A stretch of 32,000 nucleotides of DNA from an uncultured Enterobacteriaceae bacterium (GCA_964522485.1 CAZFUS010000008.1:15042-47041), one strand, 5' to 3'. Shown: positions 236 to 31,644, numbered from the stretch's first letter. Made by a program: numbers and translations. The notes: generated by a model from the sequence alone, not told the origin.

Positions 236-1201
236 TCATTGTTCGAAATTGTTTCGCAGTTCATCAGCGATTTCAAACAGATCAACTACCACTCCATAAC
301 GAGCAATGCTGAATATGGAAGCCTCTGGATCCTTGTTGATGGCGATAATGTTTGGCACATGTTTCATACCGGCCATATGCTGAACAGAACCGGAAATACC
401 CATGGCTATGTAAACGTTGCAGTTGGCCACTGTTTTTCCTGACTGTCCCACCTGCCGTGATTTTGGCAGCCAGCCATTATCAGCAATAGGACGCGAACAG
501 CCCAGCGTGAACCCCATGATATCCGCAAGCTCCTGAAATTTTTCGACGTTATCCTCCTCGTCGATACCGCGGCCAATGGACAGCATGAATTCAGCCTGGC
601 TAATATCGACGTCGCCACCGCCTTCCGGCTCTATATATTCCAGATGCTGAGTATGCACTTCAGCCTGGGGCAGCTCAAAAGCCGTCATTTCGGCGTTACC
701 TTTGTCCTCGACCGGCTTGAAGACATTACCCCGCACCGTAAGCAATATCGTATCCCGGGCCGGAAAATCGAGTTCCATGTGAATTTTCTCCGCGTAAGCG
801 GCGCGGGTTGCCACGAGTTCGTCGTTTTCGTACCTGATGCCGAACACATCGGTGGCAAAACCGTAATTTCCCCGCATAGCGATTACGGGAGCGTAGCTCC
901 ATGCATCAACGCTGTGTGGCACCAGGACAACCGCCGGTTTGCGCTCACTGATGAGGGCACTGATAGCGGCTTCATAGGTGTCTACCTGAAACTCGTCTTC
1001 AGGGGTGGTGATCCTGATAATCTCATCCACTCCTTCCAGATTGAGCCGTTCCGAATATTTATCAGGGTCGCTGGCGAGCACTGTCACCATCAGTGGTTGA
1101 CTTTTTTCCGCCTTTAACTGCCTGGCTGCCGTAATAACTTCGAGACTGGCCGGCGTCAATTCACCCTGACGATGTTCCGATATCACAAGTATGCCGCTCA
1201 T
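236..1201 (-). CDS. etfA: Electron transfer flavoprotein alpha subunit (EtfA)
   Basis: The product is 322 aa from ATG 1199-1201 (MSGILVISEHRQGEL...). The C-terminal FAD-binding region (...YIAMGISGSVQHMAGMKHVPNIIAINKDPEASIF...) is typical of ETF alpha. The start lies 1 nt after the etfB stop. The 360-aa ORF-track form is an N-terminal extension that overlaps etfB. Confidence 0.9.
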   Translation of the reverse strand: MSGILVISEHRQGELTPASLEVITAARQLKAEKSQPLMVTVLASDPDKYSERLNLEGVDEIIRITTPEDEFQVDTYEAAISALISERKPAVVLVPHSVDAWSYAPVIAMRGNYGFATDVFGIRYENDELVATRAAYAEKIHMELDFPARDTILLTVRGNVFKPVEDKGNAEMTAFELPQAEVHTQHLEYIEPEGGGDVDISQAEFMLSIGRGIDEEDNVEKFQELADIMGFTLGCSRPIADNGWLPKSRQVGQSGKTVANCNVYIAMGISGSVQHMAGMKHVPNIIAINKDPEASIFSIARYGVVVDLFEIADELRNNFEQ

Positions 1202-1202
1202 T

Positions 1203-2003
1203 TTATGCCGCCCCCTGTAGTTCTTTAATGATTTCAGTGAGACGTGCAGCCTGTTCGGCCGGCGTCCCTTCAATGAACTCTGCCTGACCCTTTTCCGGCA
1301 TAACCATGCGCCTGACACGGGACAAAGAACCTTTCACACCGACATCATCATCCGTCAGACCAATGTCTTCATGCGACAAGACCTCGATCTCCTTGCTTTT
1401 TGCCTGTTTAATGCCACGCAAGGAGGCATAACGCGGATCGTTTATACCGAGTTGTATGGTCAGAACGGCCGGCAGATCGATGGACATCTTCTGTTCCAGA
1501 CCGCCTTCAAGTTCACGGTGTACCGTCGCCCTGGAATCACCCGGTTTCAGTTCCAGATGGTTAACCACGGCCGCATGCGGCCAGCCCAGTCCCGCTGCTA
1601 TATTCATCCCGGTCTGGGCAAATGCATGGTCAGAAGACAGTGTTCCCGCAAAGACAACGTCCGGCTGTTCACGCTCAATCACCTTGACCAGTATTCTGGC
1701 TATGGCGCTTGGATCCGAACCTTCTATGGCATCATCCCATATCCTTATACCGCGTTCGCCGCCTTTCGCCAGGCACCGGCGCAGGGCGTCATCAGCCTCT
1801 TCCGGCCCGACGGTTACAGGAACAACTTCGATATTTTCACCTTCATTGGCTTCCATGATCCGGAGCGCTTCCTCATAGGAATAGTCATCCCATTCATTCA
1901 GTTCATAATCCAGATAATCCGGGTCTACCCCCGTGCCATCCTCAAGAAGTTCAAAGTCTTCATCGAGTGCAGCTATCTGTTTGATCGGCACTAATATCTT
2001 CAT
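1203..2003 (-). CDS. etfB: Electron transfer flavoprotein beta subunit (EtfB)
   Basis: The 266-aa product starts MKILVPIKQ..., and its length and layout match the ETF beta family. It sits immediately upstream of etfA. TMADH is known to use ETF as its physiological electron acceptor. Confidence 0.9.
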   Translation of the reverse strand: MKILVPIKQIAALDEDFELLEDGTGVDPDYLDYELNEWDDYSYEEALRIMEANEGENIEVVPVTVGPEEADDALRRCLAKGGERGIRIWDDAIEGSDPSAIARILVKVIEREQPDVVFAGTLSSDHAFAQTGMNIAAGLGWPHAAVVNHLELKPGDSRATVHRELEGGLEQKMSIDLPAVLTIQLGINDPRYASLRGIKQAKSKEIEVLSHEDIGLTDDDVGVKGSLSRVRRMVMPEKGQAEFIEGTPAEQAARLTEIIKELQGAA

Positions 2004-2009
2004 AAAGCT

Positions 2010-3503
2010 TTACTCCGCTCTATTGGCTTTCATGTTTGAAGTTTCTGCTGATGTCATTTCAAGCGATTTACGAACCAGCATCTGGGTGGCAATAAATCGC
2101 ACCTGCGGCTCAGGATCATCAACCAGTCTGGTGTGTTCCGCCTCAGTAAGCACCGGATGCCTTGCCAGTATCGCCCGATTCAATGGATACGGGTCATCCA
2201 GCAGCATTTTCAGCACCACCAGTGGCGCCTGATTGTTCAGAATCACGGCGCGCCGGATATCCTTGTCGCTGTGTTCCGCTATTCTTTTCAGAATGCTCAG
2301 CGGCGTCGTCGGATTCTGGCCAATGCCGGACAGAATATCCGCGTCTTCCTCTTTCGCCAGTTCCAGGAGAATCGGCTCCGGCAAGTCGTCCCGGAATGCC
2401 ACCCCTGCCCGCACCCAGCTGTTGGGATCCCGGGCCAGCTCGTGCAACAACCCGGCCGGGCACGCCGGGTTGCGTGCCACAGCGCGCCTGACTTCGGCGG
2501 TTTCATCCAGTGCCAGCCGCCGGAGTATGTCTTCGGGCGTTGTGCGGTTCCGGGCCACCCAGCGCCGCACCCAGTGATCCTCGTCCTCTGACAGATGCTC
2601 GATCACGGCTGTTGTCAAGCCGGCCCGCTGGGCCTCGGAACGCCTGACCTGGCGCGAAGGATCATCGGACAGCGCCCCGACTTCCTCCGCCGGCAGCAGC
2701 AGATTGCGCACCGATGCCGCGCGCACCTGCGGCGCCGGGTCATTCAGCAGCCGCACAAGCCGCTCGATCTGTGCCGCCGGATTCGACGCCAGCATCCGCC
2801 GTACCAGTACCTCCTCATCCTTTTCAGCCATCTCCTGAATATCTGCTGGACAATGCTCATTGGCTGCCACCTCGCCACGCAGATACCTATCACCTCGGGC
2901 CCACAGATCGCGCAGCATGATGGCATCGGCATTTGGATGCTTGGCAATCTCCTTGAGCAACTCCAATGGCGCTTCAGCGACAATCTCCGCCAGAATCTCC
3001 CGGCCGGTGTTGGGGTTGCCGCACAGGGCTTTCTGTACCACCGCCGAACCGCGCCATTTCAGCCCTGCCAATAAATCCGCAGGCGCATTTCTGTGAGCGG
3101 CAACTGCCGCAGTGAGCGGTTCTGAACCGTTGTTGCTGACCAGTTCGCGCAGGGTTTCAAGCGGCGTCGCCGGGTGGCGTGCAAGTCGCGCCTTGAAATT
3201 CGGGTCAGCCGCTAAACGGGCCATTCTGGCCAGCACGGAGGCCGGCGTATAGGGTGCAGAGGAAAGCTGACGCCGGCGTTTACCGGTGGCAAACAGAAGA
3301 CTTTCCAGTTCACTGCGCCCGGCAGCATCCAGAAAAGGATGCAATGCCAGCCCAATGTAAATGTCATCCTGATCCACGGCCCGTTTCAGCAGTTCGTCAA
3401 GATACCGATTCCACTTGCCGCTGCCGGACCGTTGCCCGGAGTTACCGCTGATAGCCTGCATCACGCCCGTTACCCGGCTTTCAGACCTGTGCAGAATCTG
3501 CAT
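2010..3503 (-). CDS. Leucine-rich-repeat-variant (LRV) / HEAT-like repeat protein of unknown function
   Basis: A long ORF carries many degenerate ~24-30 aa repeats of the form xVRxxVAxNPxxPxxLLxxLAxDP. Examples are VRRAVARNPACPAGLLHELARDPNSWVRAGVA, QVRAASVRNLLLPAEEVGALSDDPSRQVRR and DIRRAVILNNQAPLVVLKMLLDDPYPLNRAILARHP. No Cys-cluster domain is present. The start is uncertain: TTG 3515, ATG 3503 (used here) or ATG 3461. None of these has a strong SD. Confidence 0.7.
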   Translation of the reverse strand: MQILHRSESRVTGVMQAISGNSGQRSGSGKWNRYLDELLKRAVDQDDIYIGLALHPFLDAAGRSELESLLFATGKRRRQLSSAPYTPASVLARMARLAADPNFKARLARHPATPLETLRELVSNNGSEPLTAAVAAHRNAPADLLAGLKWRGSAVVQKALCGNPNTGREILAEIVAEAPLELLKEIAKHPNADAIMLRDLWARGDRYLRGEVAANEHCPADIQEMAEKDEEVLVRRMLASNPAAQIERLVRLLNDPAPQVRAASVRNLLLPAEEVGALSDDPSRQVRRSEAQRAGLTTAVIEHLSEDEDHWVRRWVARNRTTPEDILRRLALDETAEVRRAVARNPACPAGLLHELARDPNSWVRAGVAFRDDLPEPILLELAKEEDADILSGIGQNPTTPLSILKRIAEHSDKDIRRAVILNNQAPLVVLKMLLDDPYPLNRAILARHPVLTEAEHTRLVDDPEPQVRFIATQMLVRKSLEMTSAETSNMKANRAE

Positions 3504-5628
3504 CAGTCCGGACAACTTTATCGAGTTCCATGCATTCCTCTACCAGTTCAATCAACTCACGGACCTTGATGTTCTTTTCGTTACCTGTTGACTTGACCGA
3601 ATCCTCGAACATGTTCATGCATTTGGGACAACTGACAACAAAAGTATCCAGGCCCTGAATTTCCGCCGCTTCTCGCATGCGGTTTTCCGAGGGTTTTTGC
3701 TTGTCCATGGGATCCGGGGTCCATATGCGGCCGCCTCCTGCCCCACAACAGAAAGAGTTGTCACGGGAACGTTTCATTTCAACAAGGTTGGCGCCCAGCA
3801 TGTGTATCGATTCGCGTGGTGCGTCATAGCCCTTGTTCATGCGCCCCAGATGGCAGGGATCATGAAAAGTTACGGTATTGTTGTTCAGGTTCTTCTTGAG
3901 TTTTATTTCGCCATTCGCAAGCATGTGTCGTATCAGCGTGCTGGCATGCTCGACATCATATTTACCGCCAAATTCCGGATATTCATTTTTTAACGTATTG
4001 AATGAATGCGGATCGGTTGTCACTATCCGCTTGAAATCGCATGACTCCAGCGTCTCGATATTCTCTTCTGCAAGGTGCTGGTACAAACCTTCCTCGCCCA
4101 CCCGGCGGACATCATTGCCGGCAGTCATCTCTGCTTCAAACAAAATACCAAAATCAACACCGGCAGAATGCAATATGCGTGCAAACGACTGCGACACCTT
4201 CTGATAGCGGGGGTCGAAAGAAGCAAAATCACCTACAAACCAGAGCACATCCACCGGCTCCTTGCGCGCATCTTTAATCTCAAAATCCAGTTTTTTGGTC
4301 CAGGCGGGACGCTTGCGTTTATTTTCGCCGAACGAATTGCCTTTCTTCTGTATATGCTGCAACGCAGTCTGGACCGCGGGTTCCATATCACCCTGTTCCA
4401 CCAGCTGGCGCCGCATCTCCACGATCATGGGTACGTGTTCGATGCCCACCGGACAGATTTCCACGCAGGCCGAGCAGGTCCGGCAGGCCCAGAGCGTTTC
4501 ACTGCGGATCTGATTGGGCCCGTCACCCAGTGCCGAAAGCGCCTCCGCTGCAGGCAGCGATCCGCCTTCCAGTTTGTCGGACGCCAGTTCGCGCAGAGAC
4601 AGCACCAGATCGCGCGGTGATAGCGGATAGCCGGTGGCATTGGCCGGACAGGCTTCATGACAGCGTCCGCATTTGGTGCAGGCATCAAGATGAAGCAGGT
4701 GCTTGCTGCTGAAGTCCGCGATGCTGCTATAACCGATTTTATCGCTCTCCAGATCCGCCATGGGCAGCCTGGAAGAAGGTTTCGGATCGCGCATCGACAG
4801 GGACGCCATGGCGGTGAATATATGCTTCACCTTGGTAAAGGGAATCAGGGCTATAAAAGCCAGGGCGAGAACGCCATGGAACCACCAGGTATAAAGACGC
4901 ACAGCCTCACCCGTCTCCGCCGACATGGACAGCCCCTGAAAAAGATAAGCCAGCAGCGTCCCGACCGGCGACCACCAGCGATAATCCCAGACGGTGGGAT
5001 CGTCCGCCAGCCATACCAGCCTGGCGGCCTCGAGTATATAACCTGTAATGGCAATAATAATCAGGGTCCATAAAAAGGCCCAGTCTTCCCGCCGGTAGAA
5101 GGTCCGGTCATAATCGGGGTCCTCCGGACTACGATCGGGGCGCTTGTAATCCAGTTTTGGTAGTGCGAGCCATTTCCGCCGGTACATCATGTACAGCAGG
5201 CCGGCGATCAGCGCCACCCCGGCAATATCCATCACGAGGGAGAACCATAAGTAGAAATCCCCGTACCAGAATGTGAATCCTAACAGCGGTTCGGTAATAT
5301 CATATTCAAGCGTAATGGTTGCTGTGCCAATGAACAGCAACACGAAGCCAAAGAAGATAAGCGCATGGGTATGACCGGCCGCCTTGTCACGACGCTTTAT
5401 CGGTCTGTGAGACAACAGGGCAGAAACCATGTCAACGATCCCGTTCCACAGATTTCTGATTCGTACAGGTTTTCCACGGCGATATTTCCTGATCTGGATG
5501 TAGCATCCGTATATAAAAACGGCTATGGCTAAAATGGCCACCACGTAAAACGACGCCAGCATCCAGCCAGGAAAGTCCTGGAACAATATGCGTGTAACGT
5601 TTTCAGGATCGTGTTGCGGATTGACCAT
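3481..5628 (-). CDS. Membrane-anchored heterodisulfide-reductase-like (Fe-S)-binding oxidoreductase (DgcB / EtfD-like), likely the ETF-oxidising quinone reductase
   Basis: The 715-aa product has a hydrophobic N-terminal ~270 aa with several predicted TM helices. It carries two ferredoxin-type motifs, CTKCGRCHEACP and CRTCSACVEICP. The C-terminal part has CCG-type cysteine-rich motifs (DPCHLGR, FCCGAGGG, VVSCPKC). It lies between tmd and etfBA. Confidence 0.8.
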   Translation of the reverse strand: MVNPQHDPENVTRILFQDFPGWMLASFYVVAILAIAVFIYGCYIQIRKYRRGKPVRIRNLWNGIVDMVSALLSHRPIKRRDKAAGHTHALIFFGFVLLFIGTATITLEYDITEPLLGFTFWYGDFYLWFSLVMDIAGVALIAGLLYMMYRRKWLALPKLDYKRPDRSPEDPDYDRTFYRREDWAFLWTLIIIAITGYILEAARLVWLADDPTVWDYRWWSPVGTLLAYLFQGLSMSAETGEAVRLYTWWFHGVLALAFIALIPFTKVKHIFTAMASLSMRDPKPSSRLPMADLESDKIGYSSIADFSSKHLLHLDACTKCGRCHEACPANATGYPLSPRDLVLSLRELASDKLEGGSLPAAEALSALGDGPNQIRSETLWACRTCSACVEICPVGIEHVPMIVEMRRQLVEQGDMEPAVQTALQHIQKKGNSFGENKRKRPAWTKKLDFEIKDARKEPVDVLWFVGDFASFDPRYQKVSQSFARILHSAGVDFGILFEAEMTAGNDVRRVGEEGLYQHLAEENIETLESCDFKRIVTTDPHSFNTLKNEYPEFGGKYDVEHASTLIRHMLANGEIKLKKNLNNNTVTFHDPCHLGRMNKGYDAPRESIHMLGANLVEMKRSRDNSFCCGAGGGRIWTPDPMDKQKPSENRMREAAEIQGLDTFVVSCPKCMNMFEDSVKSTGNEKNIKVRELIELVEECMELDKVVRTDADSAQV

Positions 5629-5761: not shown

Positions 5762-7969
<2,208 letters not shown>

Positions 7970-8069: not shown

Positions 8070-8819
8070 TTAAATAACAGCAGACTCCGCTGGCCTGTCA
8101 TCTTCCATCGGGTAGGCATATTTATCCCAAAACAGGTTGCCGATGTCCCATCCAGATTCGATCGCCGAATCAATCACATCCGATATAAAACGGCTGGAAC
8201 CGGAAATATACACAGTTACTGAATTATCTTTATCAGCAAAAATATTTCTAATATCAAACGAATGCACTTCAGTGGTTATCAACGTATTGATAGTTAAATA
8301 ATCAAGTGCTTCCCGGTTCAGATATTTAAAAATATCGTCCCTTTGCCTGACTATATGTGCAATTTCATAATTTTTATCCGTAAGACAGACCGTATTCAGA
8401 TGTGACAGAAAAGCGGCAATGCCGGATCCGCCGGCAATAAAATAGGCAGAATTATTATCATTGCTAAAATCAATACCCCGCCGCGGCATTGATATTTTCA
8501 GTCTGTCGCCTATGCGCGCATTCCTGTTAAGCCAGTTGTTTTTACTGTCATTATCAGACGGGCTGTCCACCACAATAATCTGGTAATGATCTGATTCATC
8601 AGGTGAGCTCGTTATGCTATAGGGCGTCGGTTTGTCGCCGGGTCTTAACGGAACACCTACCGCGATATTACTGCCTGCTTCAAAAGCCGGAAGCCTGCAA
8701 CAGTCGGCTGATCTAATCGTGAAACGTTTCGCAGATGCCGATACGATTTCCAGATCAGCAATGTAAACTGGCATTTCTCGCGTTCTTCCCATATTGTCTT
8801 CAACGATATGTTGACTCAC
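8070..8819 (-). CDS. Ferredoxin-NADP reductase-like (FNR/PDR-type) flavin and NAD(P)-binding oxidoreductase without an Fe-S domain
   Basis: The 249-aa product has an FNR-type beta-barrel segment with a xPYS flavin motif (KPTPYSITS) and a nucleotide-binding motif (YFIAGGSGIAAF). There is no CxxxxCxxC ferredoxin cluster. The GTG start overlaps the upstream stop as GTGA (8816-8819). In-frame ATGs at 8792 and 8774 are alternative starts. The gene is very AT-rich. Confidence 0.7.
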   Translation of the reverse strand: MSQHIVEDNMGRTREMPVYIADLEIVSASAKRFTIRSADCCRLPAFEAGSNIAVGVPLRPGDKPTPYSITSSPDESDHYQIIVVDSPSDNDSKNNWLNRNARIGDRLKISMPRRGIDFSNDNNSAYFIAGGSGIAAFLSHLNTVCLTDKNYEIAHIVRQRDDIFKYLNREALDYLTINTLITTEVHSFDIRNIFADKDNSVTVYISGSSRFISDVIDSAIESGWDIGNLFWDKYAYPMEDDRPAESAVI

Positions 8820-9952
8820 TTTCCCTTTTGTCTAAGGCGGAGAGGATCATAAAAAGGCGGCTTAAATACCGTCGCTTCACTGGTAAAATCGCCGCCATGC
8901 ACCTCTACCGACGTGCCTGGTGCGGAAAATTCGGGCTTGATATGAATAAGTGCAAGAGACTGCATTAAATACCGGCTGTAAACGGGTGTCGTGACAAGTC
9001 CCACCTCCTTGCCATCCTTGATTAACTTTGCCCCCTCGGGAGCTGCTTTATCACTCCTGCAGACGATTCCTGTCTGCAGAAATCTCTCTTTCCCTTTCTT
9101 TTGTTGCAAGGCTTTTTTTCCACGGAAATCGTCTCTTTCGACCTCGATTCCCCAGGACATACCATTCAAGTCTACGGCCCATGACATACCCAGTTCCCAT
9201 GGCGTGACATCGCCCTCAGGCATATCAAAAGGATAAAACAGGAGACCGGCCTCAACCCGGCAAAGATCCAGACAGGTGAACGAACAGGGCATTATGCCGA
9301 ACTCGGCACCTTCATCTAATATGGTGTCCCATAACTCGACAGCGTCATCGCTGGAGCAGAAAATCTCGTAGCCACGCTCGTGCGAATACCCTGCTCTGGA
9401 AATCAAAACATCTTTACCGAACAGCTTGCTCTTTTTATGATGAAAGTAAGGAAGTTCAGACAGTTCAATACTTGTATGGGGCGAGAGCAGATTTAACACC
9501 TGCGGACCTTGTACTGACAATATATGCACATCAGCATCCCTGGATATTGTTACATTCTTCCCTTTTGAATATTCTTCCAGGACCTCTTCGGCATCACCGT
9601 CACCATGGGTGGCTCGATACTGATTCTGATCATCACAGTAGACCAGGAAATCATCCGTAATGGCTCCTTCTTTATTGCACAGACATCCCAGTCTTGACTG
9701 TCCCGGCTTAAGCACTGACATGTCCGCTGCCTGCATGGCATTGATGACTTCAAGCGCATCTGGTCCAGTGATATTGATAACCTGCAGACAGGTAACATCC
9801 CACAGACCGACGCGTGACCTTACCGCGACATGCTCATCATCAGGATTTGTGTTATAAAGCCAGGGCACTCCCATATTCCATAACGGCTCCTCAAAACTGG
9901 CGCCAAGCTCTTTATGCCTGCTGTACAGAGCGTTATGTCTTAATTCAGTCAT
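8816..9952 (-). CDS. Aminomethyltransferase (GcvT) family folate-binding protein, a putative THF-dependent C1-capturing or demethylase component
   Basis: The 378-aa product starts at ATG 9950-9952 with a GGGAG SD 6 nt upstream. It has GcvT-like architecture: LYSRHKELGASF..., HVAVRSRVGLWDVTCLQVINITGPDALEVIN..., KPGQSRLGCLCNKEGAITDDFLVY. The ORF-track TTG 9973 start is less likely. Confidence 0.8.
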   Translation of the reverse strand: MTELRHNALYSRHKELGASFEEPLWNMGVPWLYNTNPDDEHVAVRSRVGLWDVTCLQVINITGPDALEVINAMQAADMSVLKPGQSRLGCLCNKEGAITDDFLVYCDDQNQYRATHGDGDAEEVLEEYSKGKNVTISRDADVHILSVQGPQVLNLLSPHTSIELSELPYFHHKKSKLFGKDVLISRAGYSHERGYEIFCSSDDAVELWDTILDEGAEFGIMPCSFTCLDLCRVEAGLLFYPFDMPEGDVTPWELGMSWAVDLNGMSWGIEVERDDFRGKKALQQKKGKERFLQTGIVCRSDKAAPEGAKLIKDGKEVGLVTTPVYSRYLMQSLALIHIKPEFSAPGTSVEVHGGDFTSEATVFKPPFYDPLRLRQKGK

Positions 9953-10071
9953 TGCCTGCTCCCGATATTTCAACTATATGCGCTTGATACCAAGACTTTT
10001 TCGGAAAAAGTCAAATAAAATTCAGGGCCCTATTTCAGGATTTTCAATCATGTACTCATGCCCCGAAGAGC

Positions 10072-10107
10072 GTCAATCGCCCCTAAGACATACCACCTAT
10101 GGAGTAA
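10072..10107 (-). promoter_or_regulatory. Composite upstream element facing the gcvT-like/tmd/etf operon
   Basis: On the - strand it reads TTACTCCATAGGTGGTAT-GTCTTA-GGGGCGATTGAC. The 18-nt box is a perfect inverted copy of 10163-10180. The 12-mer matches TGTGCAATTGAC at 9 of 12 positions and contains a TTGAC -35-like core about 120 nt upstream of the ATG at 9952. Confidence 0.55.
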
Positions 10108-21521: not shown

Positions 21522-22316
21522 ATGAATTCTTATAGCTACATAAAAGGCAGCAGCCCCCTGATCATAAGCATACCGCATAGCGGTACATATGTACCGGATG
21601 AAATTCTTCAACGCATGACAGCAGAAGCAAGAGTACTACCGGATACTGATTGGCATGTCGACAAGCTGTATGATTTTGCCGAGTCCATGGACGTTTCTAT
21701 AATAAAGGGAAACTACTCTAGGTATGTAATTGATCTGAACAGACCTCCTGATGATGCATCTTTATATCCCGGTATGGATACAACCGGTCTCTGTCCGGAA
21801 ACCCTTTTCAGTGGCAATCCCATCTACCGGGCCGGACAAACACCCGGATCAAAAGATGTCGCCAGACGAATCGAAAAAATATGGGCCCCCTATCACGAAT
21901 GTCTCAGTAAAATTATTCACGACAAAGTCGTCGATTATGGTTATGTGCTGCTGTACGAAGCACACTCCATCAAATCGGTGGTTCCGCGTCTTTTTGAAGG
22001 CAGATTGCCCGACCTGAATCTCGGCACGGCTGATGGCGCCAGTGTAGACTATGACCTGCAACAGAAACTGTACCAGATATGCAGCAGCAATGCCGATAAC
22101 TATACCAGCACGATTGACGGACGCTTCAAGGGGGGATATATAACCCGCTACTATGGACAACCAGACAGCGGCGTGCACGCCGTCCAGCTTGAATTGACTC
22201 AATGCAGCTATATGAATGAATGCTATCCGTACAATTACATGCCGGAAAATGCCATGAAAATACGTGGTATTCTGATCCGGCTGATACGCTGTATGCTGGA
22301 ATGGCGGCCGTCCTGA
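21522..22316 (+). CDS. N-formylglutamate amidohydrolase (HutG/FGase) family protein
   Basis: The 264-aa product has N-terminal SPLIISIPHSGTYVPDE and downstream motifs DTDWHVDKLY, SRYVIDLNR, LYEAHS and VQLELTQ, all characteristic of the FGase family. Confidence 0.8.
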   Translation: MNSYSYIKGSSPLIISIPHSGTYVPDEILQRMTAEARVLPDTDWHVDKLYDFAESMDVSIIKGNYSRYVIDLNRPPDDASLYPGMDTTGLCPETLFSGNPIYRAGQTPGSKDVARRIEKIWAPYHECLSKIIHDKVVDYGYVLLYEAHSIKSVVPRLFEGRLPDLNLGTADGASVDYDLQQKLYQICSSNADNYTSTIDGRFKGGYITRYYGQPDSGVHAVQLELTQCSYMNECYPYNYMPENAMKIRGILIRLIRCMLEWRPS

Positions 22317-22776: not shown

Positions 22777-23190
22777 TCAGTCGTTCCCGATATCGGTGCT
22801 GTCCAGGCCTTGCTGCTTTTTCGGCAAATCATCCATTAACTTGTAATAATCACCCGCAAAGTTCACATGGATATGGCACCGTGTCTGCAGCCCCGTCGGT
22901 TCCGTGAGCGAACCCGCAGCTATTCTCAACAAATCGGAGTCCAGCCGGTCCCAGAACAGACTGCTGCCGCATTCGCGGCAGAAGCCGCGTCTGGCCTGAG
23001 AAGATGAGCTATACCAGTTCAGAGCCCCTCGGCCGTCATCGATCTCAACGGCGTCACGACGGGCTGCCGTGTAAGCGGCATAATGACCATGGAATCGTCG
23101 GCATTGCCGACAATGACAGTTGACAATATCACGCAGGACTGTATTGACAGTGTATGTAACTGCTCCGCACAGGCACTGCCCCCTCTGCAT
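22777..23190 (-). CDS. GFA (glutathione-dependent formaldehyde-activating enzyme / CENP-V) family zinc protein
   Basis: The 137-aa product starts at ATG 23190 (MQRGQCLCGAVTY...). Its Cys pattern CxC...CHCxxCRR...CxxCG is typical of the GFA domain. The ORF-track start at 23226 adds 12 residues with no support. Confidence 0.8.
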   Translation of the reverse strand: MQRGQCLCGAVTYTVNTVLRDIVNCHCRQCRRFHGHYAAYTAARRDAVEIDDGRGALNWYSSSSQARRGFCRECGSSLFWDRLDSDLLRIAAGSLTEPTGLQTRCHIHVNFAGDYYKLMDDLPKKQQGLDSTDIGND

Positions 23191-23262
23191 GATTACTGAC
23201 TGATTCCTCTCAAACCCGGCCACCATGCATGCGTATCGGCAACGAATACAGGCACAGCAGGA

Positions 23263-23886
23263 TCACGATGGCTCAGGCTCGGCAACTGCCAGTGTCCAGT
23301 CAGGCTTGAATGCAACCACCTGTACGCCTGGCGGCATAAAAGGATTAAAGAGCTGATTATGCCAGTAGGTTGCCTGGTATAGATAACTGTCTGCGTCCAG
23401 ATTGATCACTTCACACGGTAGTGAAAAATACTGGCGCGTCTGATTGAATTCCAGCGTGCAAGTGCCCTGCTTTTCAAGATAATTAACCAGCGGTTCATCC
23501 GGCCCGAATAATGCAGTAAGCTGATCGGTAAATTCTCTCTTGTCCTGGTAATATTCAGCGGCGAGAAATTCCAGTCCGCTGTCGTAGCGCTTTTTCGGGT
23601 CCTGGGTGCGCCGGACCATGTGCCTGAACTCCGGCACTGTTGAACAGTGTTCATGCTTGTTGATCAGAACAATAATCTGAATCAACGTGCTCTTATCAAC
23701 AACAACGCCTGGGCACATGGACTCTGAAGGCTTGCCTGCATTCCTGCGCACGGCATTCTGTCTGGCCTTGCATTGCCATTTCAGAAAATGCTCACGTAAA
23801 GCCAATGCGGCCGTTTGATGGCGCACAACATTCTGGTGATTACCGTCAGTCACGTTTGTACTGCTGCCCTCTGTCGCCGGCATCAT
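23263..23886 (-). CDS. Hypothetical protein (207 aa) co-oriented with the NMG operon
   Basis: The long ORF starts ATGATG 10 nt after the upstream stop. I recognise no family. A notable segment is LREHFLKWQCKARQNAVRRNAGKPSESMCPGVVV. Confidence 0.5.
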   Translation of the reverse strand: MMPATEGSSTNVTDGNHQNVVRHQTAALALREHFLKWQCKARQNAVRRNAGKPSESMCPGVVVDKSTLIQIIVLINKHEHCSTVPEFRHMVRRTQDPKKRYDSGLEFLAAEYYQDKREFTDQLTALFGPDEPLVNYLEKQGTCTLEFNQTRQYFSLPCEVINLDADSYLYQATYWHNQLFNPFMPPGVQVVAFKPDWTLAVAEPEPS

Positions 23887-23896
23887 GTGAAATTAC

Positions 23897-24286
23897 TCAA
23901 AATTTCGCATAGGCCTTTTTCAGATCCACCAGCGGATGATCCGGCGACATCTGGAACTTCACCAGCAGCTCACGGGCAATCATGTCACGGTCCTGCTGAT
24001 TGTCAGGCAATTTAATGTCCCCCGGCACCTGCACCCAGCCGTTGATATTCCGGTCGAAAACCGCGGGTTTGCCTTCCTCATAACCCATGTGAACGTCCTC
24101 CAACCAGTTCAGGTCCTGCCAGTCCATGATTTCCATGTATTTCTCGAGAAACGGGGTGACACGGTTCATATCCGGCACCAGATTCACATCATAGCGATAG
24201 CCAATATGCTGCCCGATTAATTTTTCACGTTCTGTATCGACACCTGTACTTGTAACGTAGTAATCAATGTCTTTTTCCTTACTCAT
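23897..24286 (-). CDS. Hypothetical acidic protein (129 aa) immediately downstream of mgsC
   Basis: The ORF starts 31 nt after the mgsC stop with an AGAGAG-type SD. It has no Cys and no motif that I recognise. Confidence 0.5.
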   Translation of the reverse strand: MSKEKDIDYYVTSTGVDTEREKLIGQHIGYRYDVNLVPDMNRVTPFLEKYMEIMDWQDLNWLEDVHMGYEEGKPAVFDRNINGWVQVPGDIKLPDNQQDRDMIARELLVKFQMSPDHPLVDLKKAYAKF

Positions 24287-29106: not shown

Positions 29107-30450
29107 CTAGCTCCAAGGGAAGGGACTATGAGACGTGGGGTGCAGTCTCCCTTCCTTGTAACGCGAGAAGCGAAATGGTTCGAGCAACTCACTGGTCTTG
29201 CCCAATACTTCCTGAGCCACAAGTTCACCAACACCAATCATTTTGTAACCATGATTGGAATCGGCAATGATGTAACAGTTTTCGCGAAAAACATCGAACA
29301 ATGGGAAATTGTCCGGCGAGAAAGCTCCTATGCCGCCTGATGGCTCTTTCTTGTATGAAGGAAACTTGTCTTCAAACCGCTTCTGACAATGTGCCAGAGC
29401 CGAGCACCACATATTGGCGAAGTCTTCACCGACAATATAATCCGGTGACTCGGTTCCATAGGGATCAATTCGCACTTTATCCGGATCCGTTTTGACTTCA
29501 AACGGAGCGGATCCACCCTGGATACCACCGAAATAGGGGTCCGGCTTATAATAAATTCCCCATATTTTATCTGTAACAAGAGAGCCATCCTTGACGGAAT
29601 ACAAAGGTGCGTCCGTATCAACATGCACTACAGGAGGCAACTTTCCGTCATTAGTTCTTTGTAAGTCAGGATCCACACCCAGTGTGCCTTCCTGCAGCGA
29701 CCAGAAGACCCACATGGGAACATCTTTGTGAATTTTTCCCTGCAGATCCTTGACCTCAATCTTCTTGGGAAGCTCCAGCATATCCCATATCGGTTTGATC
29801 CATGGGCCTGCACCGACGATGACGTAATCACATTCAATAACACCTTTATCGGTTTCCACTGCTTTAACGGTCTTGCTGCCATCTGCAGATTTAAAGCCGG
29901 TGACCTTGATACCCGTTTCAATGTTTACGCCTTCATTACGCGCCTTATCCGCCAGGCCATGCATGCTTTTAATGTTATTGGCATAACCTCCACGTTTTTC
30001 ATGCAGCACTGATGTTATGTTCTTTGCCTGCCAGTCGTCGAATATGTTACGCATGTATTTCATTGACTCTTTTTCGCCTTCAATGAAAACAGACTCATAT
30101 CCAATTTCCTGCTGCTGTTTGGCAATGCTGGCCACATCTTCACGCATTACCTCGCAGCTAATCTGCAGATAGCCAACGGAATGATAAGTGTATGCCTCCG
30201 GATCCCTTTCCCAGACTCCTACACTATGCGCCATAAGCTTGCGCATTGCCGGTTGATAATAATTATTTCTTACTACTCCGCAAGCTATGCCGGAAGCGCC
30301 TGCACCAATATCCTTTTTGTCAACAACCAGAATATCCTTGCCGTCACCTAGCTTGCGCTCCTTTAACTGCCTGGCAAGATGATACGCTGTGCTGAGCCCA
30401 TGCACACCTGCGCCGATAACCAGGTACTTTGTATGACTGGGAAGCCCCAT
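29107..30450 (-). CDS. FAD-dependent oxidoreductase (DAO family; monomeric SoxB-like amine oxidase/dehydrogenase)
   Basis: The 447-aa product has the N-terminal motif KYLVIGAGVHGLSTAYHLA. GASGIACGVVRNNY parallels the GGGNTARNTAVIRSNY motif of the soxB product in this window. It is the first gene of the gmaS-mgs operon. Confidence 0.8.
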   Translation of the reverse strand: MGLPSHTKYLVIGAGVHGLSTAYHLARQLKERKLGDGKDILVVDKKDIGAGASGIACGVVRNNYYQPAMRKLMAHSVGVWERDPEAYTYHSVGYLQISCEVMREDVASIAKQQQEIGYESVFIEGEKESMKYMRNIFDDWQAKNITSVLHEKRGGYANNIKSMHGLADKARNEGVNIETGIKVTGFKSADGSKTVKAVETDKGVIECDYVIVGAGPWIKPIWDMLELPKKIEVKDLQGKIHKDVPMWVFWSLQEGTLGVDPDLQRTNDGKLPPVVHVDTDAPLYSVKDGSLVTDKIWGIYYKPDPYFGGIQGGSAPFEVKTDPDKVRIDPYGTESPDYIVGEDFANMWCSALAHCQKRFEDKFPSYKKEPSGGIGAFSPDNFPLFDVFRENCYIIADSNHGYKMIGVGELVAQEVLGKTSELLEPFRFSRYKEGRLHPTSHSPFPWS

Positions 30451-30620: not shown

Positions 30621-30828
30621 TTCTGCGGGGTCTTGTCTGGCTCTATTCTGTTATAGACAAGAAGTACAATTTTACCCGGTTGAACGGTCCGGAAATCAAC
30701 GGGATGCGAAAACAGGATTTTATAAAGAGCGGCATCCCCCGTCGCCTGATGCATAACCGAATATATTCCATGACGCCGGACAGCCGTCCCCGGCTGATGT
30801 ACCCATGCTAGAAAGAGGAAATGGCAGA

Positions 30829-31644
30829 ATGAATTATCCCGCAACACTCACCAGTCAGATCTCGGATGTTCAGAGAGAAGATGACATGCGCAACATCGCG
30901 ATCGACAAGGTAGGGATTAAGGATATCAATCATCCTGTAGTGATTATGGGCCACATGAACAGGGAGCAGCATACCGTAGCCAATTTCAATATGTATGTCA
31001 GCCTGCCGCATAATTTCAAAGGCACACACATGTCTCGATTCGTAGAGATACTGAATAATCACGAATACGAAATTACAGTTGAATCCTTCAAACTCATGCT
31101 CAGAGAAATGACCGATATGCTGGATTCCGATTCCGGTCATATAGAAATGTCATTCCCCTATTTCGTGGAAAAATTCGCGCCCGTGACCGGCGTCAAGAGT
31201 CTGCTGGACTACCGCGTGTCCTTTATTGCCGATATGCATAATGGTGGCGAGCCTTTAATGAAAATCAAGATTATTGTTCCCGTCACCACATTATGTCCAT
31301 GTGCAAAAAAAATCTCTGACTACGGCGCTCACAACCAGCGATCACATGTCACCTTGCATGTCGTGTTAAATACGGCGATCTGGATTGAAGAATTAATTGA
31401 TATGATTGAAAATTCCGCATCATGCGAACTCTACAGTCTACTGAAACGCACAGACGAGAAATATGTTACGGAGTACGCGTATAACAATCCAAAATTCGTC
31501 GAAGATATAGTTCGAGATATAGCAGTCAAGTTGAACAAAGACCTGCGCATTTCCGGGTACAGCGTGGAGTCTGAAAATTTCGAATCAATACACAATCATT
31601 CCGCATATGCAATGGTAACGAAAGATTACCATATACCAACATAA
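30829..31644 (+). CDS. folE2: GTP cyclohydrolase I type 2 (FolE2 / GCYH-IB, MptA family)
   Basis: [25 protein letters not shown], the KGTHMSRF motif and the C-terminal [12 protein letters not shown] are characteristic of FolE2. I prefer ATG 30829, which has GAGG about 10 nt upstream, over ATG 30805. Confidence 0.85.

Follow-up and report, generated by a model that had tools for sequence, protein, structure and literature searches.

The Gene Pair at the Head of the tmd Operon

Two adjacent genes at the head of a trimethylamine dehydrogenase (TMADH) operon, tmd, were analyzed computationally in DNA of an uncultured Enterobacteriaceae bacterium (GCA_964522485.1, CAZFUS010000008.1:15042-47041). 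The window, i.e., the whole stretch of 32,000 nucleotides (nt) that was analyzed, carries the pair on the minus strand at positions 8070 to 9952. The first gene of the operon (8816..9952, minus strand) encodes a GcvT-family, DmmD-like protein of 378 amino acids (aa) when read from ATG 9952 and was identified by its Pfam domains; its longest open reading frame (ORF) opens at TTG 9973 on the same strand. The second gene (8070..8819, minus strand) encodes a protein of 249 aa from GTG 8819 that has the FNR fold and was identified by PDB and fold matches as a flavin and NAD(P)H module of the phthalate dioxygenase reductase (PDR) type without a [2Fe-2S] domain. A first-pass annotation, generated by a model from the sequence, had described these ORFs as a 378-aa GcvT-family protein and an FNR-type protein heading the tmd operon, and had proposed the pair for a missing dimethylamine (DMA) step. 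Both ORFs and their domain identities were confirmed, and comparison with related loci points to two independent accessories of TMADH rather than to the two parts of one enzyme.

The same GcvT-like/FNR-like/TMADH order was found in five independent loci, with FNR-like proteins only 30–57% identical to that of the window, and the pairing of the two genes is not due to chance. Positions 8816-8819 read TCAC on the plus strand and GTGA on the minus strand, so that the GTG start of the FNR-like gene overlaps the TGA stop of the GcvT-like gene. This overlap, from which translational coupling had been proposed, is real, but the start codon of the FNR-like gene is ambiguous on sequence evidence, and the two genes are separated by 5–28 nt in relatives, with no overlap. 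Alternative starts are ATG 8792 (Met10) and ATG 8774 (Met16, 234 aa), and public gene calls differ, one beginning at Met16 (234 aa) and the others at the GTG (249 aa). Four homologs have their start Met at the position of Met10 in the alignment, and residues 1–12 had a pLDDT below 50 in the AlphaFold model and are predicted to be disordered. The best Shine-Dalgarno-like sequence among the candidate starts (AAGGGA) is at the GTG, but only about 3 nt upstream of it.

A TMADH-Linked Paralog of DmmD

The GcvT-like protein matched both Pfam domains of the family to which it had been assigned, GCV_T (6e-64) and GCV_T_C (1.7e-12), and had more than 1100 homologs at E ≤ 1e-40. The catalytic Asp of T proteins is kept: of the two adjacent Asp residues in ITDDFLVY, the second corresponds to Thermotoga maritima Asp96, the catalytic residue that activates N10 of tetrahydrofolate (THF). 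Fold and domain order also agree with GcvT, and the best matches among solved structures were bacterial T proteins (1yx2, 5e-48; 1woo, 5.5e-43), as expected if the gene encoded the housekeeping T protein of glycine cleavage and adjoined tmd by accident. That identity, which the first-pass annotation had itself named as fatal to its proposal, is extremely unlikely, however. The protein scored under every NCBIfam GcvT cutoff (PRK00389, 218.8 vs. 300 bits; TIGR00528, 191.2 vs. 235.85; PRK13579, 133.5 vs. 459), as did the DmmD proteins of verified dmm operons, and neither gcvH nor gcvP was found among the annotated ORFs of the window. Moreover, the protein falls in a distinct clade whose genes lie beside TMADH wherever their context is readable, and its nearest neighbors outside that clade are DmmD proteins.

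The kinship with DmmD extends over the full length. The GcvT-like protein is 50–51% identical to the products of the first (DmmD-position) genes of two complete dmm operons, one from a Methylophilaceae genome (L009) and one from Methylophaga sp. OBS1 (L010). In both, the GcvT gene is followed by those for DmmA (PF22290 and PF22289), a 317-aa reductase with a Fer2 domain, and a PF11927 heme subunit. The order dmmD, dmmA, reductase, heme subunit was read at L009 11137-13762 and L010 11210-13825, where the reductases carry NPYS instead of RxYS; the order published for R. pomeroyi is reportedly dmmD-A-B-C.

In a neighbor-joining tree of 126 sequences, a distance tree without support values, the window protein was placed in a clade of 20 sequences with at least 68.6% identity inside it. 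Both verified DmmD proteins belong to a separate clade of 88 sequences, and identity between the two clades is 47–57%. All seven readable loci of the smaller clade (the window, L001, L003, L004 from Methylohalomonas lacus, L007, L008, and L024) have the gene beside TMADH. The same arrangement is present in L002, where the contig ends within the GcvT-like gene, whose product the tree did not include, and two further GcvT-like/TMADH pairs are implied by consecutive protein accessions. By homology and gene order, the protein is a TMADH-dedicated paralog of DmmD and not the housekeeping GcvT. It resembles DmmD, the delta subunit of the heme-dependent oxidative N-demethylase (HODM) of Pseudomonas mendocina, in its GcvT fold with GCV_T and GCV_T_C, its sub-threshold GcvT scores, and the place of its gene, which opens a methylated-amine operon and precedes an FNR-related gene. 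It differs in its separate clade and in its partners: it is encoded with TMADH, a flavin/iron-sulfur (FeS) enzyme that uses electron transfer flavoprotein (ETF), rather than with a heme oxygenase, DmmA and a Fer2 reductase.

TMADH-type GcvT-like proteins were also found as pairs with nearby accessions (MGH8501369.1, P0018, with MGH8502255.1, P0022; MBA2408947.1 with MBA2408260.1). Some gammaproteobacterial metagenome-assembled genomes (MAGs) may therefore carry two GcvT-like copies, perhaps in two TMADH-family operons, one of which could encode a dimethylamine dehydrogenase (DMADH).

Folate-binding modules of this kind accompany other N-methyl reactions that release a formaldehyde unit. A THF-binding GcvT module is found in the trimethylamine N-oxide demethylase Tdm (9q5a), in dimethylglycine oxidase and dehydrogenase, and in the alpha subunit of heterotetrameric sarcosine oxidase/MgdC. 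The GcvT-like protein matched Tdm at 5e-37 and the NCBIfam Tdm model with 187 bits over the C-terminal half, and an MgdC with a fused GcvT-like domain is encoded 2 kb away in the window. The module is fused in those enzymes but free-standing here, and its presumed partner, TMADH, belongs to the Old Yellow Enzyme/FeS family, for which no folate partner is known from the literature searched.

A Reductase-Like Protein Without a Ferredoxin Domain

The FNR-like protein had no match above the Pfam threshold. Against the PDB it matched the reductase domain of a CYP116B P450 (6kbh, 9e-13) and phthalate dioxygenase reductase (2pia, 6e-8), and a profile of its seven-sequence family strengthened both matches (1.5e-17 and 5.8e-15, respectively). 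The AlphaFold model (pLDDT 79.8, pTM 0.77) has the layout of a beta-barrel followed by a Rossmann domain, and its top Foldseek matches were again 6kbh and 2pia (about 1e-16), upholding the earlier call of an FNR-type reductase. Two further features reported in the first-pass annotation were borne out: the protein lacks a ferredoxin Cys cluster, having three Cys, none of them conserved, and no CX4CX2C motif, and it has TPYS where RxYS is usual. TPYS is kept in six of the seven family members, the other having RPFS. The chain ends about 20 residues past the NAD-binding domain, with no C-terminal plant-type [2Fe-2S] domain.

The family is rare. Only six homologs were found among 5.8 billion proteins, and among 185,579 species genomes only one, that of Methylohalomonas lacus, encodes the protein. 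An exhaustive profile search recovered three close cluster representatives, then proteins of 237–270 aa without a ferredoxin domain, and then Fer2-bearing reductases of about 320 aa. Ten long relatives included no fusion to GcvT or TMADH; the fusions seen were to PNPOx, Rieske, fatty-acid desaturase and PepSY domains. A metagenome scan with an alignment of 11 Fer2-less sequences gave, among the matches listed, 12 generic PDR-type reductases with no TMADH nearby.

The protein aligned end-to-end with the Dmm reductase of L009 (25% identity, E 4e-24), and an intermediate homolog, P0250 of L011, shares 40% identity with the Dmm reductase and 28% with the window protein. When the intermediate homologs P0249 and P0250 were compared with 156–157 relatives, Dmm reductases ranked 5th to 10th; they ranked lower for the other family members. 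This ranking is suggestive, not decisive, for descent from DmmC specifically, and since long branches make a tree unreliable, we limit the claim to ancestry of the PDR/Dmm-reductase type. The protein would have arisen from such reductases by loss of the [2Fe-2S] domain. It shares with DmmC (HODM gamma), PDR and CYP116B a flavin barrel and an NAD(P)H Rossmann module, and its xPYS is akin to the NPYS of Dmm reductases; since these carry NPYS, the Arg of RxYS is not universal in the Dmm-reductase group. It differs from DmmC and PDR in lacking the C-terminal [2Fe-2S] domain, in having DSKN for RGGS and SGS for CGP, and in occurring only beside TMADH.

A weak match to PF22290, the N-terminal domain of DmmA (19.4 bits vs. 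a cutoff of 33), suggested a different identity. DmmA, the HODM beta subunit, follows dmmD in canonical operons, and its PF22290 Rossmann module is related to PDR-type NAD-binding domains. It is, however, a protein of about 200 aa with PF22290 and PF22289, and it lacks a flavin barrel, which the FNR-like protein has. The identification with DmmA was rejected: PF22290 matches PDR-type NAD-binding domains generally, PF22289 is absent from the FNR-like protein, and the BLAST match to real DmmA covers 36 residues.

Conservation within the family falls on the cofactor-binding frame of FNR proteins. Across 11 divergent sequences, residues invariant at canonical motif positions were S68, G130, G131, G133, P112, G115, and G207, representing the Ser of xPYS, the GGxG nucleotide loop, the PxG junction, and the Gly of xGP/xGS. 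A C-terminal Trp-Asp and an aromatic residue were also invariant, and the aromatic residue aligns with the flavin-stacking Phe region of PDR-type proteins. The flavin-stacking Tyr-Ser is retained, as are a GGSGxxxF nucleotide loop and the C-terminal aromatic residue. Both flavin-phosphate contacts, on the other hand, are replaced (Arg of RxYS by Thr; RGGS by DSKN), and the Cys of the CGP motif is Ser (SGS). K93, N94, and W96 are invariant in the close family, and W96, W231, and D232 are specific to the family and invariant in it.

The ORF is intact in every locus, and it is the fastest-evolving gene of the operon. Between L001 and the window, identity is 93% for TMADH, 87% for the FeS protein, 87% for ETF beta, 80% for GcvT, 65% for the LRV protein, and 46% for the FNR-like protein; for L024, the values are 81% (TMADH), 70% (GcvT), and 30% (FNR-like). 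As judged from these comparisons, the protein is under selection yet evolves fast. It may have a modified mode of binding flavin and NAD(P)H, or it may serve as a scaffold.

A third possibility is an NAD(P)H:flavin reductase of the Fre/LuxG type, which would use free flavin as a substrate and provide it in reduced form to another partner, e.g., a two-component amine monooxygenase encoded elsewhere. Its size (225–260 aa) and lack of an FeS domain fit such an enzyme, and loss of the flavin-phosphate contacts would be expected if flavin were a substrate rather than a prosthetic group. The RPFS of one homolog is the motif of Escherichia coli Fre, and there is a weak match to the NCBIfam NAD(P)H-flavin reductase model PRK08051 (E 6e-4). 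That match, however, reached 19.2 bits against a cutoff of 230, no Fre or LuxG structure was among the PDB sequence and fold matches listed, and no flavin-dependent monooxygenase was found in any locus. Strict linkage to TMADH would also be left unexplained, and we consider a Fre/LuxG-type role quite improbable.

Three Layouts Around TMADH

The two genes are associated with TMADH in three layouts. The GcvT-FNR-TMADH layout is present in the window, L001–L004 and L024; in L024, P0249, which is 30% identical to the FNR-like protein of the window, lies between a GcvT-like gene (70%) and TMADH (81%). In L007 and L008, both from the MAG GCA_051001175.1, only 68 bp separate a GcvT-like gene (72%) from the TMADH gene downstream of it (83%), and an FNR gene is absent. 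In L011, P0250 is directly upstream of TMADH, and no GcvT-like gene precedes it. Among loci with readable context, the FNR-like family was found only next to TMADH. The co-occurrence check proposed in the first-pass annotation therefore returned the full gene order in five other loci and, in addition, each gene beside TMADH alone. Because the GcvT-TMADH and FNR-TMADH layouts both exist, the two genes are not an obligate pair, and the independent association of each with TMADH argues against a two-component enzyme.

The layouts also bear on another reading of the FNR-like protein, as a pseudo-enzyme without a cofactor. It would act as a structural adaptor, keeping the GcvT-like protein on TMADH so that formaldehyde or the iminium product is channeled, and would have a parallel in the degenerate Rossmann module that DmmA contributes to Dmm. 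We regard this as unlikely. In its favor are the loss of both flavin-phosphate contacts (Arg to Thr; RGGS to DSKN) and of the CGP Cys, the fastest evolutionary rate in the operon, a gene position between those for the GcvT-like protein and TMADH, and lineages without the FNR gene, which show that catalysis does not depend on the protein. Nevertheless, invariant residues are still seen at the Tyr/Ser that stacks on the isoalloxazine, in the GGxG loop and at the C-terminal aromatic position. An adaptor would also be hard to reconcile with L011, where the FNR-like gene adjoins TMADH with no GcvT-like gene beside it, and with the GcvT-TMADH operons, which manage without an FNR-like gene.

Alternatively, the pair could be dedicated to maturing or repairing the [4Fe-4S] cluster of TMADH, with a GcvT-fold protein like YgfZ/IBA57 and an NAD(P)H-driven electron donor. 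TMADH does carry such a cluster, a reductase beside a GcvT-fold protein fits the scheme superficially, and PMC9551070 describes YgfZ/IBA57 as acting in [4Fe-4S] protein maturation. We hold this to be very improbable, as the GcvT-like protein is of the T-protein/DmmD type (GCV_T_C present, 50% identity to DmmD, catalytic Asp kept), with no match to a YgfZ model and no KGCYxGQE-type signature, and the GcvT-like and FNR-like genes occur independently of each other.

Proposed Functions of the Two Proteins

The reading we favor, with moderate confidence, is that the GcvT-like protein is a TMADH-dedicated, THF-dependent formaldehyde acceptor, that the FNR-like protein is an optional accessory derived from a reductase, and that the pair is not an amine-oxidizing enzyme. 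On this reading, the operon is a self-contained unit for trimethylamine (TMA) oxidation. TMADH oxidizes TMA to DMA and a formaldehyde unit, and its electrons leave through ETF beta/alpha and a membrane FeS/CCG protein. The GcvT-like protein would condense the formaldehyde unit made by TMADH with THF to form 5,10-methylene-THF, a capture that would curb toxicity and feed C1 metabolism.

THF-dependent formaldehyde capture is the most likely function of the GcvT-like protein by analogy with DmmD, since the TMADH reaction also releases formaldehyde. DmmD is described as an auxiliary subunit that conjugates released formaldehyde with THF; DMA demethylation in E. coli proceeds without it, yet it matters for growth on methylated amines (PMC5520151, PMC4543880). 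A formaldehyde-capturing accessory of TMADH was the fallback offered in the first-pass annotation, and the DmmD kinship and TMADH linkage favor it for the GcvT-like protein.

The role of the FNR-like protein is proposed with low confidence. It may be a flavin- and NAD(P)H-binding module that serves as a redox-poising or activating accessory and, since it has no cluster domain of its own, would dock directly on TMADH or ETF; its activity and its contact with TMADH are both inferred.

Several points weigh against these proposals. The potentials of the TMADH cofactors lie far above that of NAD(P)H, and for this reason we know of no productive NAD(P)-linked reaction with TMADH that could be named. 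Loss of the flavin-phosphate contacts and of the CGP Cys is equally compatible with a cofactor-less scaffold and with an active reductase. Gene context is known for only nine loci, mostly short metagenomic contigs from one gammaproteobacterial group, and the genome that L011 represents could still have a GcvT-like gene at another site. Finally, the THF/formaldehyde role of DmmD is itself largely inferred (PMC5520151, PMC4543880).

The Dimethylamine Step

DmmA, the PF11927 heme subunit (DmmB), and DMADH or a second TMADH paralog were not found by tblastn in the window or in eight related loci (≤21 kb) with DmmA, the Dmm reductase and the heme subunit from two real dmm operons, plus TMADH, as queries. 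The first-pass annotation had likewise seen no DMA dehydrogenase, complete Dmm or heme-PAS ORF. The absence of dmmABC or dmd from 32 kb says nothing about the rest of the genome, and the DMA step cannot be called missing on that basis.

TMADH itself (5762..7957, minus strand; probable start ATG 7957, preceded by GAGGAG) matched M. methylotrophus TMADH (1djn) over its full length with 1292 bits. The equivalents of Cys30, Tyr60, Ser74, and Trp105 are all identical to those of 1djn and are also kept in the TMADH of L001, L002, L004, L007, and L011. Cys30 is the flavinylation site, and Tyr60, Ser74, and Trp105 tell TMADH from DMADH, as reported in the TMADH-to-DMADH engineering literature. Because these three residues are kept, the neighboring enzyme is not a DMADH.

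In the first-pass annotation, the GcvT-like and FNR-like proteins, alone or with TMADH, were proposed to be a reduced or novel N-demethylase for the step from DMA to monomethylamine. The two proteins are homologous to parts of Dmm, and their genes keep the relative order of the Dmm genes, with the THF subunit ahead of the reductase-type module; other Dmm subunits and DMADH are absent locally; and genes of the monomethylamine-consuming N-methylglutamate (NMG) pathway flank the operon. The outline of Dmm given with the proposal was right in that two of its module types are echoed here (50% identity to the DmmD position; 25% to the Dmm reductase), but it omitted the fourth subunit, DmmA. We nevertheless consider such an N-demethylase improbable. 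TMADH is the only oxygen-activating or amine-oxidizing subunit present, and the reductase lacks the [2Fe-2S] domain that feeds the heme subunit in Dmm. The pair is not obligate, with relatives that lack the FNR gene (L007, L008) or a GcvT gene upstream (L011), and E. coli can demethylate DMA in the absence of DmmD (PMC5520151). In addition, TMADH and a full dmm operon both appear to be present in the Methylophilaceae assembly from which L009 comes, as the P0168 and P0071 clusters both list a longest contig of 1,249,755 bp; if so, TMADH with a separately encoded Dmm is an existing natural solution. On this evidence, the pair is not a credible stand-alone DMA enzyme, and the claim that it supplies the missing DMA step is not supported.

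A more elaborate arrangement, which we find rather far-fetched, would be a complex of TMADH, the FNR-like protein and the DmmD-like protein in which the FNR-like protein borrows the surface-exposed [4Fe-4S] cluster of TMADH for an NAD(P)H-linked second activity, e.g., oxidative demethylation of the DMA product at or near the TMADH site. Such a complex would pass both formaldehyde units to THF, and the operon would take TMA to monomethylamine without Dmm or DMADH.

Other Genes and Features of the Window

Downstream of TMADH, four genes on the minus strand complete the operon. The first (3481..5628) encodes a membrane-anchored FeS/CCG-domain oxidoreductase with two Pfam CCG domains, a 4Fe-4S dicluster domain and a QmoC-like N-terminus, which is the probable electron outlet from ETF to quinone. 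It is followed by an LRV/HEAT-repeat protein (2010..3515; Pfam LRV, 4.8e-20), whose true start is probably inside the ORF and which is conserved in position, with 50–65% identity in relatives. ETF beta (1203..2003; Pfam ETF, 5e-36; conserved synteny) and ETF alpha (236..1201; Pfam ETF and ETF_alpha) come last, the latter with 321 aa from ATG 1201 and homologs of 320 aa. The same four genes follow TMADH in five full-length related loci (L001, L002, L004, L007, L008), encoding a 715-aa protein whose N-terminal membrane domain is accompanied by a 4Fe-4S dicluster and two CCG domains, an LRV/HEAT protein of 470–500 aa, ETF beta and ETF alpha; L003 and L011 end within the first gene after TMADH. 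The set resembles a dedicated route for electrons from TMADH to the membrane, in place of a classical ETF:quinone oxidoreductase.

A weak promoter-like site, TTGACG-18-CATGAT (10047..10076, minus strand; 9/12 matches in a consensus scan), precedes the GcvT-like gene, within the intergenic region that separates it from the divergent mgdA. Between the FNR-like gene and tmd, neither a convincing terminator nor a structured RNA was found, the 103-nt spacer having a z-score of 0.64 against shuffled sequence. A weak terminator-like hairpin at 8078-8092 (minus strand), with a 6-bp stem, a 3-nt loop and a T-poor tail, overlaps the 3′ end of the FNR-like gene. A split of the operon at this spacer was considered and rejected, the spacer being no more structured than shuffled sequence and the hairpin weak.

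Divergent from the operon are the sarcosine-oxidase-like mgdABCD and an ABC transporter. Farther on are mgsCBA and gmaS. The first gene of the gmaS-mgsABC operon (29107-30450, minus strand) encodes a 447-aa FAD oxidoreductase of the DAO family. Its PF01266 match (5e-34) is limited to residues 9–226, with no family match for the C-terminal ~220 residues, and its best solved relatives are beta-type subunits of sarcosine oxidase (1y56_B, 1e-13). No homolog was found in the related loci fetched, save a weak cross-match to MgdA. Since sarcosine and dimethylglycine oxidases act on N-methyl amines, this protein is an alternative candidate for DMA oxidation.

Three accessory genes lie among the methylamine genes: an N-formylglutamate amidohydrolase (FGase/HutG; 21522-22316, plus strand), which scored above the NCBIfam cutoff; a GFA-family (glutathione-dependent formaldehyde-activating-like) protein (22777-23226, minus strand); and a GTP cyclohydrolase, FolE2 (30805-31644, plus strand). 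Near the dmm operon of L009 there is likewise an FGase gene, and dmmD of L010 has a FolE2-type gene on its upstream side. Two ORFs of 207 aa (23263-23886, minus strand) and 129 aa (23897-24286, minus strand) between the GFA-like gene and mgsC had no match in Pfam or NCBIfam.

Significance for Methylated-Amine Metabolism

TMADH is a textbook flavin/iron-sulfur enzyme whose formaldehyde product is usually treated as released free. A link between TMADH and a GcvT, DmmD, aminomethyltransferase or folate-binding partner was not found in the literature searched, the coverage of which was incomplete, so that this is weak evidence of novelty. The GcvT-like protein would represent a known device, the folate-binding formaldehyde acceptor, in a free-standing form and attached to a different class of amine-oxidizing enzyme. 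The Fer2-less reductase-like proteins, as delimited by homology and gene context, are a small, undescribed family linked to TMADH. For the pathway, the result is mainly negative, and the DMA step is to be located in the rest of the genome.

These findings are relevant to specialists in methylated-amine metabolism and TMADH enzymology. The role of the Fer2-less reductase could reveal a new redox or assembly requirement of TMADH. If TMADH does have a dedicated folate partner, the dehydrogenase route would also hand its C1 unit to THF, as the oxygenase routes do through Tdm, Dmm and NMG dehydrogenase, and this would affect how carbon flux and formaldehyde stress are modeled in TMADH-using methylotrophs.

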